Shown here: one piece after another, positions 47,689 through 56,339 of the stretch | How positions within the stretch are numbered: the first letter of the stretch is position 1 | Layout: each line of letters begins with the position of its first letter | Assembly (NCBI GenBank): GCA_030595795.1 | Contig: JAUVCH010000004.1 | Coordinates: 4,502 to 68,501, forward strand | Length of the DNA stretch: 64,000 bases | Source: Gammaproteobacteria bacterium | GTDB lineage: Bacteria > Pseudomonadota > Gammaproteobacteria > GCA-001735895 | Reading direction: 5' to 3' | Program-made: the position numbers and the translations under genes | The notes under the pieces: generated by a model | Told to the model about the DNA's origin: nothing | The model's input: the letters and a program-made list of their open reading frames with translations, nothing else | The model's database searches: none

Positions 47689-47829
47689 GGGCGGGGTCAT
47701 TGGAATATGGGCTTGCGTAAGCCTCTTCTAATAGTTGTTTTAGCGAGGCTTTGATGCTCCTTTTTTTACTTGCCATTGTATATACATTGTATATACTTAA
47801 ATGTATTCAATGTAGATCCGGTGATTGCG

Positions 47830-48096
47830 ATGCGAGTAAATAGTGAAATTAGTCAGTGGGGTAACGGTTTGGCTGTAAGGTTGAACCGATCGGTTATTGA
47901 CGCCGCCAACCTAACTAAAGGCTGTAAAGTGCAGATTGAGGTAGATAAAACAGGGGTTCATATTAGTCCGGTTAAGGCAAAGAAAACAAGGTTACGGCTC
48001 CCGCTCAGTGAGGCTTCATTGCTTGCTAAGATAACGCCTGAGCTGGCTCATGCTGACGAACTGGCCCAGCCTTTATCTGACGAAGTGGGCGACTAA
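47830..48096 (+). CDS. MazE/AbrB-family antitoxin
   Basis: MRVNSEISQWGNGLAVRL… swapped-hairpin fold N-terminus. The track ORF begins at 47770, but the internal Met is more likely. Confidence 0.7.
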   Translation: MRVNSEISQWGNGLAVRLNRSVIDAANLTKGCKVQIEVDKTGVHISPVKAKKTRLRLPLSEASLLAKITPELAHADELAQPLSDEVGD

Positions 48097-48461
48097 TGGC
48101 GTCAAAATATATCCCTGAGCGTAAGGATATTATCATGCTTGATTTTGAACCTACTAAAGGGAAAGAAATCGGTAAGTATCGTCCGGCTATAGTGTTGAGC
48201 AGTAAGTTCTACAACAAAAAAACAGGATTACTTATATGTTGCCCGATAAGCACTAGCATACGCGGAGGATCTACCGAAGTTCCGGTAAATAACATCGATC
48301 ATCCTTCCGTTGTTGCGGCAAGCCTGGTGCAAACCTTTTCCTGGGGTGCCAGAAAAGCCAAGAAGATAGCAATTGCTGAAGAGGGTGTTTTTGAAGCAGT
48401 ACTTTTACGCCTTCTCCCGTTGCTAGGCACGGAAGAAATATTAGACGAGTTAACTGAATAA
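48096..48461 (+). CDS. MazF/PemK-family endoribonuclease toxin
   Basis: …KYRPAIVLSS…LLICCPISTS… PemK core; ATGGCG overlaps the antitoxin stop. Confidence 0.8.
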   Translation: MASKYIPERKDIIMLDFEPTKGKEIGKYRPAIVLSSKFYNKKTGLLICCPISTSIRGGSTEVPVNNIDHPSVVAASLVQTFSWGARKAKKIAIAEEGVFEAVLLRLLPLLGTEEILDELTE

Positions 48462-48496
48462 GGACGTATTCTTTATGGAAAAAATCACAATGTATT

Positions 48497-48856
48497 CTAG
48501 GGGCACGTTTTGTTTTCTTCCTGCAGGTTTTCCCCACGCCGGGCAGGTGTGACCAGGGTTCTGTGTTTGCTATTTGGGGCGAATACGTCGTGAAAACGCG
48601 TCAGATTGACTCGCGGTTTCGGTACCAGTGAGGCCAGTTTCGATATGAAATCCAGCGGCTCAAAGATCACATGGGTCGTGCCGTCTCTGTAGGGTGTTTT
48701 GAGCTGGTAGCGGATGTTGCCTGCTGATGTTAACGAAAGTCGTTTTTCCGATATGGAAGGGCGTGATATGTAACGGCACAACCTTTCCAGTTTGTCGCGC
48801 TCCCAAGCCTGAGCGGGAGGTGTAGTGGCTTGAATTGGGCAATTTTGGTTACTCAT
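48497..48856 (-). mobile_element. C-terminal fragment of an IS91/ISCR-family (Y2 HUH) transposase; remnant
   Basis: …LCRYISRPSISEKRL…IRYQLKTPYRDGTTHVIFEPLDFISKLASLVPKPRVNLTRFHDVFAPNSK… parallels the conserved C-terminal block of ISCR/IS91 transposases (…ARYLSRPPLSNERL…VRFE.KDY…F…L…V.P……IRHYGLLAN…). Only about 119 aa remain; the catalytic core is absent. Confidence 0.5.
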
Positions 48857-49332
48857 ACTTTGTATATGCAGATGCGGTAATGCTTATCAAATTCTATTAA
48901 TAAGTAAATCATTATATAACAATATAATGATAATTTAAATATATTCAACTGACAGCAAGTGATATCGCAACTTGTCGATATAACATACAGATAACTATGT
49001 AATCGGTTAGTGTCAGTTGATCTCAACGTGGATGCAATTGGCCCTGACCCTGATCGACTTTGTTAGCGAAGGGTATTTGGCTTTACAACAATTTTCAGGT
49101 TTTCACTAACGACTGAAACAAATTGGAGTAATTTAACTAGCTCGAGAACATCTGGCCTAGGGGCTAAAGGAAAGGCGCGACGGCAATTGATGCCGATACT
49201 GTAAAGATGCCGCAAACGCGGATTTCGTGATCAAAGCAGTTCTGGCGGTGCGCGAGACCCTGATCGAGGTGTTCGGGTCGGCTTGATGAAATCTGTTCAC
49301 CTGATGTAGTGCTGGCGTCCACTTCGGGTCAG

Positions 49333-49535
49333 CCCATCAACCGAATGGTCGAGACCTGGCGCACCCATATCAACAACAAAACGGAAAAATCATCATTGAC
49401 GGTTCCCGGTGGTACTTCAATAACCAGTGGCCCGGTCTTTTCTAAATCGAATGCATTGAAGGCATAAACAGTATCGGTGTTAGCGGTAAGAAACAGTGGA
49501 TTTGAAAGTAATGCGTCTAAATAATGCTTTAAAAA
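49333..49535 (-). pseudogene. Fragment of a DUF1254-family gene, with no start
   Basis: The reverse-strand translation …HYLDALLSNPLFLTANTDTVYAFNAFDLEKTGPLVIEVPPGT… matches the DUF1254 core (…PN.DT.Y..A.LDL..GP.VL.VPD…). It lies in a non-coding AT-rich stretch. Confidence 0.3.
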
Positions 49536-49855
49536 TCAATATTCTTAAGCTCTAAAAGTAAACCCTACAAAAACCTTACAAATCCAGTTATATTTAAGTA
49601 CTTACAGTTACTAGGATTTGGCATAGCTAAACAGACTGAGCGCGTAAATATAACAGATGATTTACACATCAATAAGCAGGCTGATTCTAAGCGTTGGCTA
49701 GCTAAGTTTAAAATAGGCAAAACGTGGCTAACTAAGACCACTAAAGACAAGTTGAATTAATCAGATCCTTGTAGTCTGTCGCCTCTTATTGGATGGACTT
49801 CCCAGACTTAAAGTGTTTGAGACATTAATTTCATAGATAAAATCCGTCTGTTCAA

Positions 49856-50869
49856 TTAGTTAAGATGTCGTTCGAACTCACTGGTATGCATCGCCTCAAA
49901 ACCATTGTTGGATTTCACTAAAAGATAAACAGGTATTTTATTTTGTTTGGCGAATAACATCGTTTTTTCCTTCCCCATCACCATAAAGGCAGTTGCAAAG
50001 GCATCGGCCAGCATTGTCTGTTGATGGAGTACTGTTACAGAAACCAATTGATGAGTAATAGGTCTCCCAGTAGTGGGATCAATTGTATGAGAAAACCTTA
50101 CTTCGTTTTTTTCAAAATAATTTCGATAGTCGCCGGAGGTTGCGACCCCAAGCCCTAGTGGTGAAAAAACCTTATGAATCTGACTCTGCTTTTCTACCGG
50201 CGCTTCGATGGCTAGTCGCCAGGGTTTGGAGTCTGGATTCATTCCCTTTGAAGCCGTTTCTCCACCGATTTCAACAAGATAATTTTCGATATCATTAGTT
50301 CTTAATAGTTCAGTGATTTGGTCGACCCCATACCCTTTGGCTATCGCAGAAAGGTTAACGGATATATTTGCGTTTTCTTTTTTTATGCAGGCGATCCCTA
50401 ATGATAGCTTTTCGAACCCGATTTGTTGCAATAAACTCTTTATTTTCCGCTTGTTGGGTACGACATCATTGGTCTGTTTTTTATCGAAACCCCATTCAGA
50501 TATTAACGGTCCCACCGTTACATCAAAATTTCCGCCTGTCAGTCGGCTGACTTCAAGCGAATTTTTGATTACATAAAATGTTTCTGTCGAAACAGGTTGG
50601 CAGTCTAAAGAAGTCGATTGATTGAATCGCGATAATTCCGAATCATCAATATAAGTCGACATAAGTTGGTTGATTCGGTTTAGTTTTTTTTCAATTTTCG
50701 CGTGCAAGTGGTTAGCATTATCTTGACTTGCTTTTAGTGTAATTCGGTAACTAGTGCCCATGGTGAAACCACTGAGATGAAGGTAGTCATCTTCCTTTTC
50801 GCAGCCAGCCATCAGGCATACTGCTAAAGTAGCCACTAACAACCGGTAAATAATATTAAACTGTTCCAA
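49856..50869 (-). CDS. apbE: FAD:protein FMN transferase (ApbE family) lipoprotein
   Basis: Lipobox LMAGC and ApbE motifs: …GFTMGTSYRI…, …DVTVGPLISEWGF…, …AIAKGYGVD…, …GGE…, …TSGDYRNYF…, …HTIDPTTGRP…, …ADAFATA…. Confidence 0.85.
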   Translation of the reverse strand: MEQFNIIYRLLVATLAVCLMAGCEKEDDYLHLSGFTMGTSYRITLKASQDNANHLHAKIEKKLNRINQLMSTYIDDSELSRFNQSTSLDCQPVSTETFYVIKNSLEVSRLTGGNFDVTVGPLISEWGFDKKQTNDVVPNKRKIKSLLQQIGFEKLSLGIACIKKENANISVNLSAIAKGYGVDQITELLRTNDIENYLVEIGGETASKGMNPDSKPWRLAIEAPVEKQSQIHKVFSPLGLGVATSGDYRNYFEKNEVRFSHTIDPTTGRPITHQLVSVTVLHQQTMLADAFATAFMVMGKEKTMLFAKQNKIPVYLLVKSNNGFEAMHTSEFERHLN

Positions 50870-51356
50870 GTGTTTTCCCGTAGATCTGGTCTACTAAATT
50901 TGGTCGGCTAAATTAGGTGATTTACTCACACAAAAGAGGACAGTTCAATAGTCCTCTTTGTATCTAAACAAGCTGCTCTAGAATAAAAAGGGTCAGATCA
51001 CGCTTTCCCCTGCATCTATTAAAAAATTGAATTGCTATATCAAAACCTCTTTCGAGAAAGGCTCATGAATTCGCTTGATAGGCATAACAATAAAATCCAC
51101 AAATATGTTTGGGTGAGTGAGCAACTCTTGTGTTTATAATAGTACGTTATTAGTGGTGATTTAATTTATCATATCGACAAGGAAACAGGGAATAGTTGAC
51201 ACAGATCAACAAGGGGTAATTAAAAATGACTATCGTGAACTCATTAGAGATATTTTAAAAAATACCAAAATTATGTAGTTTTAAATTTTATTTTAGGCCG
51301 CAACTTTGACCCATGTAATTTTAGGGTTTAGTAATTTTTTCTGGAGAACACTTTTA

Positions 51357-54242
51357 ATGAACGACTTCAACACTCGGCTGAGTTCACTATCGAGTAAAGC
51401 TATTATCGCATTACTGAGCGCAGGTCTCATTAGTGGGAACGGCATTGCTCAAGTACCCAATCCCGAACCCACCACTTACACCGATGTGTCAGTTCCTCAG
51501 CTGACAGGCTGGAATGATGCCAATATTGTTACTTTGGATGGCATGACTGGCGCCACGGAAAAGAGCCACATCTATGAATCTGCTGCGGCTATAGTCGACC
51601 CTACCAAGAGTAGTGTAGCGGCTGTATTCTGGGAATTGGACAATGGCAGTGGTCGTGCACCGGGTATACAGGTTGTCACCGACGACTTTGATGTCCCGAC
51701 TAACAACTGCATCATGGCCTCAGGCGAGCTTGAAAGTGTTGATTTCCCTGGCACCATCGTGCCCAAAACCTGTAGTGACCCACAGGGCAGCTCCAAGCGT
51801 TATTTTCTTGAGATGACCTCGAGTGACGTACCGATAGACATGGCGTTTGATCTCGGCGTCAAGGATATCCGCTACAAGGGTGTCAAGGATCCTGAAACCG
51901 ATGGTGGTGAGGCGCTGGCTGAGTTTAAAGCGACTTACGGCATCGGGCGTATCTATCGCGTGATCCAGAAGGTCATCAATAACACAGAGAAGCGTATTGC
52001 CAGCTACAAGTTTGAGCTGGGTACCGGTCTGGGAGATGCATTCCTGCCGCTGACTTTTGAGGAGCATGGTGTTGGCTTCGAGATGCTTCCTTTGGTGCCA
52101 CGCGAGTTCCTTGAGGGAGAAACCGGCGCGCCTGATATCGCTGTATGGGACTCACTACGCTTTGCGACGGTCTCGCCAAAAATGTTTGACGATGGATCCC
52201 GTGCACGATTTGATCCTGGATTTCTGGATCACAATGCTGCGGGCTTTCTGCCCCCACAGCTTCCAGCTGTTGGCGTCGAAAAGAGCCAGTATATCGACAG
52301 TGGCACGAGTATTGTCGACGGTATAATTGGCTCTATGACCCCCAATTATTTTAATATCGCCGATACTCAAGGTGTCTTACTGCCTGGTAACATACTGGGT
52401 TACCAGCTTTCCGATTCGCTGATACCGGAAGTCATTGGTGAATACAATACCAATGAGATTGGTGGCGAGTCAGATTCGATCGTTGCCATATGGGACGGTT
52501 CCGACTGGCGCTCTGGACGCGCTGGACTTGATGGATTACCTGGACTTGACGATCTCGACCCTGATGCGGCAGATAATTATGGAATTATTCCAGACGCTCA
52601 ATTAATACAATGGGCAGCCAAGCCGCTTGGTCTGGATCTTGATACCGATGACGAGACAGACCCAGACTTCGTTCGTTATGAGGTTATATTGAGTGATGAC
52701 CTATCTGGCCTGAATACCGATTTTTTCATCTATATCGGCGACAAGTTGCTGGATGATACCGGTGAGCTGATACTGGACTCTATCACTTTGCGTCTCACAG
52801 CAAATTCTGTTGAAGCGGTTATTGGTGATGTGCCCGGTAGCGAAGATCCGCCCTGGGGAAGTGATTTAGATGCTAGCAGAATAGACGCACCGACACTGGC
52901 CAGCTATATGCCGGTTACAGGCACGCCGATTGCCATCAACGACATTACTACCACTGTGGAAGATGACCCGTCTACCACTATTACTATTGATGTCCTGGAG
53001 AATGACCTGCTGGATGGTGCGGCAGTAGTTCCAGCCGACGGGTTTATTACGATTACAACACCTCCCGAAGACGGCATTGCTACTATCGTTGGCAATGAGA
53101 TCGAATACACTCCGGATGCAGATTTCGTCGGTACCGATTTCATTAGCTATACTTATACGCTAACCGCGGGTGCGGTCGTCTCCAATATCGCAACCATCAA
53201 GATAATTGTGGAGGCGGCACCGATACCGGATCAACCGTTGGCCGTTAACGACTCCGCTACTACGTTCAAAGACATACCGGTAACCCTCGATGTGCTGGTC
53301 AATGATGAACTGTACAACGATGCCCCCAACACAGTGGTGGTCAGCATCAATAATGATGCCCTGAACGGTGTTGCAAGTGTGGCGGGCGACAACACCATCG
53401 TCTATACCCCGGGTGCAGACTTTGTTGGTTTCGAACGCTTCACCTACGTTGTAACAGTGGATGGCATAGTTTCGAACTCTGCTCTGGTCACGATTAAAGT
53501 TGATTCTTTTGGTATTCCGGATGCAATCAACGACATTACTGTCACCCTTGAAAATGACCCGGTTACCATTGATGTCCTGGAGAATGACGTGCTGGAAGGT
53601 GTGCCAGTAATTCCAGCAGACGGGTTTATTACCATTACAAAAGCTCCCCAAAACGGCAGTGCTGCTGTCGTTGACCAAAAGGTCGAATACACTCCGGATG
53701 CGGGTTTTACCGGTACCGACTTAATTAGCTATACGTATACACTAACGGCGACTGGAGATGTATCCAATACCGCAATCGTCACAATCATTGTGGATGCGGC
53801 ACCGATACCGGATCAACCGTTGGCAATTAACGACTCTACCACTACGTTCAAGAACACAGCGGTAACACTCGATGTGCTGGACAATGATGAACTGAACAAC
53901 GATGCCCCCAGCACAGTGGTGGTCAGCATTAATAATGCCGCCCTGAACGGTGTTGCACGCGTGGAGGATGACAACACTATTATCTATACCCCGGGAATAG
54001 AATTTGTTGGTATCGAACGCTTCACCTACGTTGTAACAGTAGATGGCATAATTTCGAGCTCTGCGCTGGTCACGATCAGAGTTGATGAGCCTGTTGTTGT
54101 GGTACCGGTTGCTACTGGTGGTAGTGGTAGATGTTCGCTCTCCTACAATCCGGACGGTAAAATCGATCCCCTGCTGCCCGGTATAGTCCTTGTCAGTCTG
54201 ATTTACCTGGGATGGAGATCAAGGAAAAATGATGCCAGGTGA
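51357..54242 (+). CDS. Large secreted cadherin-like/Ig-like tandem-repeat surface protein with an N-terminal FMN-attachment-type motif (DGMTGAT) and a C-terminal sorting-signal-like tail
   Basis: I take the start as the internal ATG at 51357 (SD GGAG, then a Sec signal …IIALLSAGLISGNGIAQ); the track ORF runs from 51306. Four C-terminal ~100-aa repeats show the …DVLxNDxxxG…YTPxxxFxGxDxFTYxV… pattern. The tail reads …TGGSGRCSLSYNPDGKIDPLLPGIVLVSLIYLGWRSRKNDAR. Confidence 0.8.
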   Translation: MNDFNTRLSSLSSKAIIALLSAGLISGNGIAQVPNPEPTTYTDVSVPQLTGWNDANIVTLDGMTGATEKSHIYESAAAIVDPTKSSVAAVFWELDNGSGRAPGIQVVTDDFDVPTNNCIMASGELESVDFPGTIVPKTCSDPQGSSKRYFLEMTSSDVPIDMAFDLGVKDIRYKGVKDPETDGGEALAEFKATYGIGRIYRVIQKVINNTEKRIASYKFELGTGLGDAFLPLTFEEHGVGFEMLPLVPREFLEGETGAPDIAVWDSLRFATVSPKMFDDGSRARFDPGFLDHNAAGFLPPQLPAVGVEKSQYIDSGTSIVDGIIGSMTPNYFNIADTQGVLLPGNILGYQLSDSLIPEVIGEYNTNEIGGESDSIVAIWDGSDWRSGRAGLDGLPGLDDLDPDAADNYGIIPDAQLIQWAAKPLGLDLDTDDETDPDFVRYEVILSDDLSGLNTDFFIYIGDKLLDDTGELILDSITLRLTANSVEAVIGDVPGSEDPPWGSDLDASRIDAPTLASYMPVTGTPIAINDITTTVEDDPSTTITIDVLENDLLDGAAVVPADGFITITTPPEDGIATIVGNEIEYTPDADFVGTDFISYTYTLTAGAVVSNIATIKIIVEAAPIPDQPLAVNDSATTFKDIPVTLDVLVNDELYNDAPNTVVVSINNDALNGVASVAGDNTIVYTPGADFVGFERFTYVVTVDGIVSNSALVTIKVDSFGIPDAINDITVTLENDPVTIDVLENDVLEGVPVIPADGFITITKAPQNGSAAVVDQKVEYTPDAGFTGTDLISYTYTLTATGDVSNTAIVTIIVDAAPIPDQPLAINDSTTTFKNTAVTLDVLDNDELNNDAPSTVVVSINNAALNGVARVEDDNTIIYTPGIEFVGIERFTYVVTVDGIISSSALVTIRVDEPVVVVPVATGGSGRCSLSYNPDGKIDPLLPGIVLVSLIYLGWRSRKNDAR
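52920..54100 (+). repeat. Intragenic tandem (A-B)x2 duplication of two ~300-bp units encoding cadherin-like domains
   Basis: A1 (~52920-53215), B1 (~53215-53515), A2 (~53515-53800) and B2 (~53800-54100). Identical stretches such as gcggcaccgataccggatcaaccgttggc appear at ~53213 and ~53799. Confidence 0.8.
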
Positions 54243-54265
54243 GTAAACACTAATAGTTCAATGTT

Positions 54266-54299
54266 AAAAACCCCTCTCTTGTCGAGGGGTTTTTGTTTT
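54266..54299 (+). terminator. Rho-independent terminator between the repeat protein and the CPBP protease gene
   Basis: AAAAA-CCCCTC-tcttgtc-GAGGGG-TTTTTGTTTT. Confidence 0.65.
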
Positions 54300-54306
54300 A
54301 ATAAGC

Positions 54307-54858
54307 ATGATGACGAAACAATTTGAGCCTAACAAGCATGTCTGCGGCCCATTCCAGAGACTCTTCGTAATGAACTTGCTGCGCGAAATCGGTTTAAAAC
54401 ACAAAGCAGGGTGTTATTTCAATTACCGTTTTGTGCTGACAATCCTGGCAGGCATATTAGCAGTCTGGGTGATACATGGTTGGGTGCAGCCTTACCCATC
54501 ACATGTTGAATTTAACTGGCTGCAGTTACTATCGCTGATTGTCTGGCAGCCGCTGCTTGAAGAAGTGCTGTTTCGCGGCATTATTCAAGGACAGCTTGCC
54601 AAATATGAATGGGGTAAACGCTCGCGGTTGAATATCAGCAGTGCTAATGCCGCAACGTCAGTATTGTTTGTTGCGATGCATATGGTTAACACTTTGCCAT
54701 TGTATGCACTGACTATATTTGCACCTTCGCTGGTTTTAGGTTATTTCCGTGACTACTGCGACAGTATTTACCCATGTATTGTTATTCATGGCACCTTCAA
54801 TGCGATGATTTTTGCGGGATTAATTTTAAACGGCAATATGAATTTACCAACAATGTGA
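54307..54858 (+). CDS. CPBP-family (CAAX protease-like) intramembrane glutamic/metallo-protease
   Basis: All three CPBP motifs are present: EEVLFRG (EExxxR), FVAMH (FxxxH) and HGTFN (HxxxN), on a multi-TM 183-aa protein. Confidence 0.8.
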   Translation: MMTKQFEPNKHVCGPFQRLFVMNLLREIGLKHKAGCYFNYRFVLTILAGILAVWVIHGWVQPYPSHVEFNWLQLLSLIVWQPLLEEVLFRGIIQGQLAKYEWGKRSRLNISSANAATSVLFVAMHMVNTLPLYALTIFAPSLVLGYFRDYCDSIYPCIVIHGTFNAMIFAGLILNGNMNLPTM

Positions 54859-55352: not shown

Positions 55353-56339
55353 ATGACAAGAATCATAAATTGGATTAACAAACTGATCATTGGTGTGTTA
55401 CTCGCCGCCCCAGCATTATCGAATGCCGACCCAATTCACGAAGCAGCAGAAAGTGGTGATGTTGATCAGATTTTGAAACTGCTCGACGGTGGGGCCGACG
55501 TTAACGCTCCAGACCTTGACGGGACACCTCTTCAATGGGCATTATTTTCCAACCAAATAGAAGTTGCTCGACTTCTTCTAAAGCGTGGTGCAAATCCAAA
55601 TGTTAAAGGGTGGGATGGAACGCTACTGGAATCGGCCGCGCTTAACGGTAAAACCGAGATTGCCAAAGTTCTTCTTAAACATGGTGCTAATCCTAATAGC
55701 GGAGATCGCTCCACACCTTTAATCCGGGCCGTGCAAAAGGGAAGTTTAGAAATCATCGCGTTACTTCTCACTCAGGATGCCGATCCTAGCTTGGCCACTC
55801 CTGACGGAACCACTCCCTTACACGAAGCCGCCCATGGAGGTAAATTGGAGATCGCAAAGCGATTAGTTGATAGTGGGGCCGATGTTAACGCACTCAATGG
55901 AATAGGTAGGCCAGCCATCCATTTCGCTGTTGAAAAGAACCACTCCATTTTGGCTGCTTATCTAAAGAAACATGGTGCAACACCAGGTAAGATCGCTTCC
56001 ATTACAGACCTACTCGCCTCCGCTGACGCAGCACAAGGAAAGACGTTAGCCGAGAAGCAGCTTTGTGTTGATTGCCATATCGTGGACAAGTATGGCCCAC
56101 CCTTATGGAATGTAGTGGGCCGTAAAAAGGGTAGTGTCAATGATTATTCTTATTCCCCACCATTTGAGGCTTTAAAGGGCAAATGGTCCTTTGAAGCACT
56201 CAACGTATTCCTGGCTCGTCCTACCGAAGTCGTACCTGGCACAAAGATGAACTTCCGTGGTATTTCGGACCCACAAATGAAAGCTGAGGTAATCGTTTAT
56301 CTACGATCTTTAAGTGACGATCCAGTACCACTTCCGTAG
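55353..56339 (+). CDS. Periplasmic ankyrin-repeat protein fused to a C-terminal class I cytochrome c (c2-like) domain
   Basis: Sec signal (…LLAAPALSNA), about five ANK repeats (…TPL..A…G…V..LL..GA..N…), then CVDCH heme-binding and a …PGTKMNF… Met-ligand motif, with the cytochrome c2 pattern GPPLWNVVGRKKGS…YS…. Confidence 0.8.
   Translation: MTRIINWINKLIIGVLLAAPALSNADPIHEAAESGDVDQILKLLDGGADVNAPDLDGTPLQWALFSNQIEVARLLLKRGANPNVKGWDGTLLESAALNGKTEIAKVLLKHGANPNSGDRSTPLIRAVQKGSLEIIALLLTQDADPSLATPDGTTPLHEAAHGGKLEIAKRLVDSGADVNALNGIGRPAIHFAVEKNHSILAAYLKKHGATPGKIASITDLLASADAAQGKTLAEKQLCVDCHIVDKYGPPLWNVVGRKKGSVNDYSYSPPFEALKGKWSFEALNVFLARPTEVVPGTKMNFRGISDPQMKAEVIVYLRSLSDDPVPLP

Follow-up and report, generated by a model that had tools for sequence, protein, structure and literature searches.

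A choice-of-anchor F surface protein encoded beside an ApbE flavin transferase is a candidate new class of ApbE substrate in Gammaproteobacteria

A 64,000 nucleotide (nt) stretch of a Gammaproteobacteria bacterium genome (assembly GCA_030595795.1, contig JAUVCH010000004.1, positions 4,502 to 68,501 of the forward strand; here called the window) carries two divergent genes, one for ApbE, the flavin adenine dinucleotide (FAD):protein flavin mononucleotide (FMN) transferase, and one for a large secreted protein of the choice-of-anchor F family (CoaF). Near its N-terminus CoaF displays the seven residues D-G-M-T-G-A-T, an ApbE-type flavinylation motif. Sequence comparisons make CoaF a probable candidate for a new class of ApbE substrate. 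That it is a redox protein sorted to the cell envelope or surface and carrying covalent FMN is a reading we hold to be somewhat more probable than improbable. Flavinylation by ApbE is one of the main means by which bacteria equip the space beyond the cytoplasm with redox cofactors, and the substrate domains known so far number only a handful. It should be noted that what is new here is the candidate substrate; the enzyme and its chemistry are already known. A first-pass annotation of the window had described a lipoprotein ApbE at 49856-50869 on the minus strand, head to head with a large secreted protein of 960 amino acids (aa). Both genes are confirmed, the second with a length of 961 aa, and the span given to the pair, which ended at 51580, covers only the beginning of the large gene. 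The coordinates of all features are in Table 1.

The motif begins 30 residues into mature CoaF, counted from the predicted cleavage before Q32, and both this distance and the position at 51537-51557 agree with the first description. The strict pattern D[GAS]x[ST][GAS]A[ST] has a single occurrence among the window open reading frames of 60 aa or more, taken over the six frames; the chance expectation is 0.003 in the CoaF protein and 0.06 in all long open reading frames of the window. The recognition motif of ApbE has been given as D-x-x-[S/T]-G-A-[S/T], whereby seven residues are sufficient and function best near a terminus (PMC12052999). The CoaF motif is essentially the same string as those of NqrB (DGYSGAT) and NqrC (DALSGAS) from a related nqr operon.

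The distribution of the motif was followed in 195 CoaF family members of at least 450 aa, arranged in a neighbour-joining tree. It occupies one block of alignment columns and falls in one contiguous clade, which comprises 59 strict matches, eight DG[VI]AGAT variants and three secondary losses, and which includes Vibrio, Marinobacter, Alcanivorax and Spongiibacteraceae. At the same place, 128 of the 195 sequences are without the motif and have unrelated sequence (Wenzhouxiangella, Thioalkalivibrio, Salinisphaera, Myxococcota and more distant groups), and some of the motif-less proteins have insertions of about 20 residues at this loop.

Residue counts over 65 near-full-length members of the motif clade show D at the first position in all 65 and, at the second, G in 58 and A in 6. 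The third position is freely variable, with an entropy of 2.5 bits. The fourth is T in 30, S in 25 and A in 8, the fifth G in 61 and the sixth A in 64. The acceptor position, the seventh, is T in 47 and S in 17, so that an acceptor residue is kept in 64 of the 65 members, which bears out the expectation that orthologues would keep the motif. To judge from the sequences, this pattern of substitution is the one that ApbE permits. The corresponding loops of the sister clades are unrelated in sequence and tolerate insertions of about 20 residues, therefore the fold does not need the DGxTGAT sequence; and since the fold tolerates other loop sequences, a constraint specific to one clade is best explained by a function specific to that clade. 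Recognition by ApbE is the obvious candidate for this function.

Two further observations concern the motif. In the close relatives L036:3-491(-) and L047 it has been lost by a 6-nt deletion together with substitutions, and the sequence reads VDDGVTEQ. Outside the clade, motif-like matches (P0255, P0290, P0300, P0352, P0387, P0425) are single sequences that appear at a near-chance rate and are kept as leads only. One of these, in the very distant CoaF-like protein P0425, is DPNTGAT at residues 68-74, in the equivalent N-terminal loop; for all its near-chance rate, it could be an independent gain.

The CoaF gene is taken to start at the ATG at 51357 in preference to the TTG at 51306, based on homologue N-termini and a GGAG ribosome-binding site, and the start is 487 nt from apbE. 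The choice-of-anchor F profile NF033657 matches residues 88-481 with 210 bits (cutoff 50) over positions 1-307 of 307, and NCBI gives homologues the CoaF name too, the closest being 81% identical. The family is rare: a search of 1.84 billion representative proteins gave only 194 matching clusters (50% identity). A metagenome scan queried with the single CoaF protein gave nothing, and an alignment-based scan gave loci.

An AlphaFold model of CoaF residues 1-528, built on a 149-sequence alignment, has a predicted local distance difference test score (pLDDT) of 90.1 and a predicted template modelling score of 0.88; with 19 sequences the pLDDT was 43, and the larger alignment was therefore used instead. 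The signal peptide was judged from the sequence and the homologue alignment, not by a predictor. A31 is invariant in that alignment, and residues 1-9 and 26-32 have pLDDT values below 50. Strands 41-52, 57-60 and 69-72 make the N-terminal segment integral to the modelled head domain, and the motif is the loop between the second and third of these strands. The motif block has a pLDDT of 72, against 94-98 in the flanks, and is the sole local dip. Thus in the model the motif is placed within the mature folded domain, and not in a signal peptide or propeptide, either of which the first-pass annotation had named as a location that would speak against its proposal. Pfam detects no domain in the N-terminal region even at E<=10, FMN_bind (PF04205) included, and FMN_bind, DUF2271 and DUF3570 are absent from the Pfam output for CoaF. 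Neither this profile search, of the kind that the first-pass annotation had proposed, nor fold comparison gives an FMN_bind or other known flavinylated domain.

The stalk that follows the head has four Big_9 domains, displayed at the DNA level as direct repeats with a period of 582-591 nt and 79-82% nt identity, and these arose by tandem duplication of a two-domain unit. Because of this duplicated unit, CoaF is about 100-200 aa longer than its homologues, which are mostly about 640-870 aa.

A second line of evidence comes from haem. Haem c motifs (CxxCH), each with an upstream His, are found in 12 of 207 CoaF proteins (P0104-P0106, P0111, P0242-P0245, P0248, P0249, P0251 and P0252), none of which has the FMN motif. 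The insert after window residue 259 reads 'HGGGxxCxxCH', is present in one or two copies, and is found in an Ectothiorhodospiraceae-type clade related to the Salinisphaera protein. The insert after window residue 305 reads 'H..T.GL.CxxCH' and is found in a clade related to the Thioalkalivibrio proteins, as well as in three metagenome loci (L056:5929-8394, L057:2947-5412 and L059:1776-4277). Sister sequences have no insert at either loop. In addition, a Wenzhouxiangellaceae paralogue of about 1210 aa joins CoaF and Big_9 to an EB_dh haem b domain (PF09459, 6e-31) and two C-terminal CxxCH motifs, and the genes for this fused form (L020:6044-9682 and L013:4340-7963) are in tandem with a second CoaF gene.

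A family of pentahaem proteins (620-820 aa, five CxxCH motifs, 37-92% mutual identity) adjoins CoaF or MrtJ, the protease gene described below, in at least ten loci from several genera, and a lipobox is present in all seven proteins examined. These loci are from Alcanivoracaceae (L007, L030), Marinobacter (L010, L025, with remnants in L029 and L051) and metagenomes (L040, L041, L055, L056). On L071 the pentahaem lipoprotein gene lies immediately downstream of a window-type ApbE gene, where the window has an IS91 fragment and DNA of low guanine-plus-cytosine (GC) content. The pentahaem proteins are below the thresholds of known families: with ExtKL they reach 35-41 bits where 250 are required, and their match to the MtrC/MtrF domain is also sub-threshold. 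From its haem-bearing members and neighbours, the CoaF domain looks redox-linked. The interchange of flavin and haem across lineages makes it considerably more likely that CoaF has a redox function, and hence that Thr67 is a genuine cofactor site, and it corresponds to the modularity described for known flavinylated systems (PMC8238504). The likely role of CoaF would be electron transfer outside the cell.

The C-terminus of CoaF has the tripartite layout of a JDVT-CTERM sorting signal, which was read from the sequence as GRC...IDPLLPGIVLVSLIYLGWRSRKNDAR. It narrowly misses the cutoff of the hidden Markov model (HMM) NF033191 (JDVT-CTERM), with 23.7 bits against 27, and the DP is found 11 residues past the Cys, not 9, as is also the case in the variants P0282 and P0303. 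The gene for the glutamic intramembrane protease MrtJ begins 65 nt downstream of CoaF, and its product matches NF033192 with 104.9 bits (cutoff 75). MrtJ genes adjoin CoaF in many related loci, and in Photobacterium, Marinobacter and other CoaF contexts MrtJ is the sole common neighbour. The JDVT-CTERM/MrtJ system was defined by Haft (bioRxiv 10.1101/2023.06.07.544157), with MrtJ as the proposed processing protease of JDVT-CTERM, and the MYXO-CTERM/MrtX system has been shown experimentally to place proteins on the cell surface (Guo et al. 2025, PMC11980579). The window CoaF resembles both in its tripartite Cys signal and adjacent protease gene, and the position of the client gene beside its protease is as in Haft's description. 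However, the window signal differs in its score just under the HMM cutoff and in the spacing of the DP, and the JDVT-CTERM/MrtJ papers mention no flavin, ApbE or haem in client proteins. By analogy with these systems, CoaF may be displayed on the surface.

The strong terminator-like hairpin that separates the CoaF stop codon from mrtJ might fix a high ratio of substrate to protease expression. In the Alcanivoracaceae locus L007, a second, short CoaF paralogue of 500 aa (L007:12511-14013) is found between the motif-bearing CoaF and MrtJ; it has a strong JDVT-CTERM signal and is without Big_9 domains or FMN or haem motifs. One MrtJ may there serve two clients, against the rule of one client per genome.

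The window ApbE matches PF02424 over its full length (287.4 bits, cutoff 25.6, E 1.5e-85, profile positions 1-264 of 266). By inspection, a lipobox, L-M-A-G-C20, follows the hydrophobic N-terminus, which marks the enzyme as an extracytoplasmic lipoprotein, as had been proposed. The segments ATSGDY (243-248), HTIDPTTG (261-268) and ADAFATA (288-294), which we take to hold the catalytic residues, are kept. With NF007774, the E. coli ApbE equivalog, the protein gives 292.8 bits against a cutoff of 498, and it is thus a member of the family but not of that equivalog. Its closest homologues of known context (57-67% identity) are all found in nqrABCDEF-apbE-(CN hydrolase)-nqrM operons. Window-type ApbE proteins form a cluster of their own, with 19 members at 90% identity, and are 67% identical to the nearest nqr-linked ApbE. 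The GC content of apbE is 0.40, and 0.385 at third codon positions, compared with 0.48 for the window and about 0.42 for the nqr loci of relatives. In our reading of these comparisons, the gene would be of the Nqr type and would have been acquired or relocated beside the CoaF gene in one lineage. A tblastn search of the window with a complete nqr operon gave apbE as the sole match and no nqr gene. Thus the earlier statement that the window has neither nqr nor rnf genes holds for nqr; for rnf, which was not searched for directly, there is no Rnf-like annotated neighbour within about 5 kb.

Direct pairing of ApbE with CoaF is found on two other contigs, L048 and L036, and is implied by intergenic homology on L039 and L071, both of which begin inside the homologous intergenic region (76.6% and 87% nt identity, respectively). 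On L048, an ApbE with 91% aa identity is divergent from a CoaF gene bearing DGTTGAT, and the similarity to window DNA (91%) does not extend beyond ApbE and the adjoining ~220 nt of the intergenic region. L036 has the same arrangement; its ApbE is 87% identical, and the nt identity is 81.5% from ApbE across the intergenic region to the beginning of CoaF. Downstream of the ApbE stop codon, the DNA is different on each of the four contigs of the lineage: homology is absent among the window, L036 and L071, and between the window and L048 it is limited to the 50 nt adjoining that codon. It is unlikely that ApbE came to stand beside a motif-bearing gene by chance and was kept across a CoaF divergence of 64-75%. 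The pairing is meaningful within this narrow lineage and not family-wide, and it is supportive rather than main evidence.

Several results weigh against flavinylation of CoaF. An ApbE homologue is present within 10 kb of CoaF in none of 30 related genome loci, and the closest relative (L031, 81% identity) has an aldo-keto reductase gene and no ApbE upstream. As a family-wide rule, ApbE adjacency was rejected, since it is missing from these loci, from L034, L035 and L038, and from 31 of 32 metagenome loci. The pairing, from which the first-pass annotation had predicted a surface flavoprotein, is thus no general feature of the family and belongs to a narrow lineage. That annotation had also reasoned that its proposal would suffer if ApbE were found elsewhere without this neighbour and with Nqr or Rnf as its only partners. 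This is partly so: the relatives are in nqr operons and the pairing is rare, though it recurs on the four contigs named above. On L036 the divergent ApbE is kept though the motif is destroyed, and three other members of the motif clade have lost the motif. The motif arose only once, and phylogenetic inertia could account for some of its conservation. The CoaF head matched no PDB fold and resembles no known flavin-binding fold. Among the neighbours within about 5 kb there is no membrane electron-transfer component (NapH-like, MsrQ-like, PepSY, DsbD or Nqr/Rnf-like), tblastn detects no pentahaem gene or remnants in the window, and the case for surface display is made by analogy.

These points raise the main rival explanation, that CoaF is not flavinylated at all. 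It would be a cadherin-like adhesin or other surface protein in which DGxTGAT has a structural role (a turn, or a ligand or metal contact), and ApbE would be an Nqr maturation factor displaced by mobile elements. The nqrF-apbE-nqrM context of the closest ApbE relatives agrees with this, as do the low GC content of apbE and its place beside an IS91 fragment and a MazEF module, the absence of the pairing from nearly all related loci, its persistence on L036 without the motif, and the failure to match a flavin-binding fold. However, the substitutions in the motif are exactly those that ApbE tolerates and match NqrB and NqrC, and in the sister clades the motif loop is dispensable for the fold. An exposed motif of seven residues suffices (PMC12052999), and a bearer that transits the periplasm should therefore be modified. 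Haem inserts and cytochrome neighbours favour a redox function over pure adhesion, and chance adjacency of a motif-bearing gene and ApbE on several diverged contigs is improbable. On this balance we consider the absence of flavinylation rather unlikely, though it is the foremost of the rivals.

Two other explanations are variants of the flavinylation reading. In one, ApbE, CoaF and originally the pentahaem lipoprotein would form a dedicated, co-regulated module, in which ApbE would be an extra, horizontally acquired paralogue with CoaF as its special substrate, alongside a housekeeping copy linked to nqr at another place in the genome. The conserved block that runs from ApbE into CoaF is in its favour, as is L071, where ApbE is followed directly by the pentahaem lipoprotein gene; the GC content, like the remnants of mobile elements on the flank, suggests acquisition, and the 19-member cluster stands apart from the nqr-linked enzymes. 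Yet most motif-bearing CoaF genes have no linked ApbE, L036 kept ApbE and lost the motif, and the DNA downstream of ApbE is different on every contig. We consider a module of this kind distinctly unlikely. Very improbable is an incidental flavinylation, with the motif loop as a natural flavin tag of no functional role. In its favour, short motifs suffice for ApbE (PMC12052999), several clade members lost the motif yet keep the gene, and no flavin pocket is recognisable. Against it, six positions of the motif are under strong purifying selection in genera with CoaF domains just ~45-80% identical to that of the window, and the independent covalent haem sites of other clades suggest a benefit from a redox cofactor.

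In the preferred reading, in which CoaF carries covalent FMN, the Sec pathway would export the CoaF precursor, and the C-terminal JDVT-CTERM helix would keep it tethered. The periplasmic lipoprotein ApbE, using FAD, would then couple FMN to Thr67 in the DGMTGAT loop through a phosphoester bond; transfer of FMN from FAD is established ApbE chemistry. MrtJ would cut at the Cys-containing sorting signal, after which CoaF would be displayed on the envelope or surface, by analogy with MYXO-CTERM/MrtX, and the four Big_9 domains would hold the flavinylated head off the membrane. The FMN may pass electrons to and from c-type cytochromes, and in relatives the pentahaem lipoprotein would take this part. 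The window has no pentahaem gene, and here the part would have to fall to the nearby cytochrome c with ankyrin repeats or to a cytochrome encoded elsewhere. The Nqr-type ApbE would have come to stand beside the CoaF gene in a single narrow lineage, and in most other species an unlinked ApbE would modify CoaF.

A wider proposal is offered tentatively, as a possibility we would not favour over doubt. CoaF may be the head of a hitherto unrecognised extracellular or periplasmic electron-transfer system of marine Gammaproteobacteria (such as Marinobacter, Alcanivorax, Vibrio/Photobacterium, Spongiibacteraceae), and a new redox fold. MrtJ would sort it, and with a dedicated pentahaem lipoprotein as its partner it would act on an extracellular substrate, for which metals, minerals, oxygen and organic acceptors are candidates. 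The fold would have gained a covalent cofactor three times: FMN via ApbE in one clade, and haem c via CxxCH inserts in two.

CoaF shares with NqrC, NqrB and RnfG (domains FMN_bind, PF04205, and NQR2_RnfD_RnfE) the acceptor sequence D-x-x-[S/T]-G-A-[S/T] and, as predicted here, extracytoplasmic modification by a lipoprotein ApbE. It differs in that neither HMM nor fold comparison gives it an FMN_bind or NqrB-like domain, and it is not an ion-pump subunit. Its motif is in an N-terminal hairpin loop of a beta-rich domain of ~460 residues, and the protein is C-terminally sorted. Other classes of ApbE substrate have been found via gene neighbourhoods, namely DUF2271 and DUF3570 (Meheust et al. 2021, PMC8238504) and Flavodoxin_4 and FMN_red (Huang et al. 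2024, PMC11334425). CoaF is similar to these in having a domain other than FMN_bind, a conserved [S/T]GA[S/T] and an apbE nearby without nqr or rnf neighbours. However, it belongs to an unrelated family that is not listed in either study, its linkage to ApbE is rare, and no described transmembrane electron-transfer partner is nearby. Compared with the flavinylation clusters of Meheust et al. 2021, the window has ApbE and a candidate substrate without a membrane component within ~5 kb.

Cooperation of flavins with haems at the cell surface is familiar from other systems. The pentahaem lipoproteins linked to CoaF resemble the outer-surface multihaem lipoproteins of the MtrC/OmcA type, in that they match the MtrC/MtrF domain, and ExtKL weakly, in both cases sub-threshold. 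They differ in having five haems, in scoring far under every family cutoff and in that no porin partner was seen; the flavin, moreover, would be bound covalently by another protein. In Listeria monocytogenes, the surface lipoprotein PplA is flavinylated by FmnB and functions in extracellular electron transfer (PMC9973259). It would share with CoaF a covalent FMN tethered at the surface, attached by an ApbE-like enzyme, and, as proposed here for CoaF, the passing on of electrons outside the cytoplasm. PplA differs in its FMN_bind domains, N-terminal lipid anchor, Gram-positive envelope and defined Ndh2/EetAB pathway.

An independent hint ties the sorting system to flavinylated proteins, through other client families. 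Rare JDVT-CTERM neighbourhoods contain DUF3570, DUF4266 and TlpA (Haft, bioRxiv 10.1101/2023.06.07.544157), and this set is a flavinylation cluster (Meheust et al., PMC8238504). CoaF, flavin on JDVT-CTERM clients and haem inserts in CoaF are not mentioned in PMC8238504, PMC11334425, PMC12052999 or bioRxiv 10.1101/2023.06.07.544157, and full-text searches were also without a match.

If CoaF is flavinylated, it would represent a structurally new class of ApbE substrate. It would also be, to our knowledge, the first ApbE substrate on an envelope or surface protein that is C-terminally sorted by JDVT-CTERM/MrtJ. In combination with the CoaF clades that bear haem and with the linked pentahaem lipoproteins, a flavinylated CoaF would point to a so far undescribed route of electron transfer in abundant marine heterotrophs and hydrocarbon degraders, and it would give a first functional lead for a family named only 'choice-of-anchor F' and for a MrtJ client. 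The enzyme and its candidate substrate, side by side in the window, are a ready-made experimental pair.

Table 1. Positions of the ApbE and CoaF genes, of elements within and around them, and of pentahaem lipoprotein genes in related loci (window positions unless a locus is given)
Feature	Position	Strand	Basis or remarks
ApbE, FAD:protein FMN transferase	49856..50869	-	TTG start, 337 aa; PF02424 match
Divergent intergenic region	50870..51356	.	AT-rich, GC 0.33; conserved with both flanking genes in narrow lineage
Choice-of-anchor F (CoaF) surface protein precursor, 961 aa	51357..54242	+	NF033657, Big_9 and JDVT-CTERM matches
Predicted Sec signal peptide, residues 1-31	51357..51449	+	Ends GIA before Q32; inspection and homologue alignment
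CoaF head domain, ~residues 38-500	51468..52856	+	Beta-rich; motif loop within
ApbE-type flavinylation motif, D61-G-M-T-G-A-T67	51537..51557	+	Thr67 is the predicted FMN acceptor
Four Big_9/cadherin-like (tandem-95) domains, stalk	52926..54092	+	Pfam and NCBIfam
JDVT-CTERM-type sorting signal	54126..54239	+	GRC Cys motif, DP, transmembrane helix, basic tail WRSRKNDAR
Terminator-like hairpin	54265..54295	+	12-bp stem and T run; between CoaF stop codon and mrtJ
MrtJ, CPBP/Rce1-like glutamic intramembrane protease	54307..54858	+	NF033192, PF02517
Secreted protein, five ankyrin repeats and C-terminal monohaem cytochrome c (CVDCH)	55353..56339	+	Pfam Ank; Cytochrom_C 2.7e-4
IS91/ISCR transposase fragment	48497..48856	-	PF04986, NF052416
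MazE/MazF (PemK) toxin-antitoxin pair	47770-48461		Within low-GC patch 47770-49855 downstream of ApbE
Pentahaem lipoprotein gene	L007:14691-16514
Pentahaem lipoprotein gene	L030:10959-12824
Pentahaem lipoprotein gene	L010:7572-9791	-
Pentahaem lipoprotein gene	L025:7595-9736	-
Pentahaem lipoprotein gene	L041:4337-6211
Pentahaem lipoprotein gene	L055:136-2094	-
Pentahaem lipoprotein gene	L071:1652-4099

The neighbours within about 5 kb are argS, a SPOR protein, MazEF, the IS91 fragment, MrtJ, the cytochrome c with ankyrin repeats, a rhodanese, a YgjP-like protein and HrpA. Between the IS91 fragment and the ApbE stop codon there is ~1 kb of non-coding DNA with no convincing open reading frame, and region 48497-49855 has a GC content of 0.40. 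Rfam and tRNA scans of the window gave no matches. The gene for the ankyrin-repeat cytochrome c, a protein of unusual architecture, is 0.5 kb beyond MrtJ. The protein is a possible, and speculative, local electron partner; as a conserved partner of CoaF it was rejected, with no homologue near CoaF in 30 genome loci.

The region between the two divergent genes displays no convincing sigma-70 or Fur sites. Regulation by iron was also rejected, since the highest-scoring Fur-box matches in the upstream DNA of 34 CoaF genes average 11.4/19 and are indistinguishable from the background of 10.6/19. On the metagenome contig whose CoaF is closest to that of the window (83% identity; L064:1002-1747), an aldo-keto reductase gene, not ApbE, lies upstream, and the CoaF frame is broken just past DGITGAT, by a frameshift or an assembly error. 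Regulators of the Crp/Fnr family (FixK/Fnr-like) are found just beyond the CoaF-MrtJ(-pentahaem) genes at L007:16517-17266(-) and L031:13252-13986(-), a possible hint of oxygen- or redox-responsive control.

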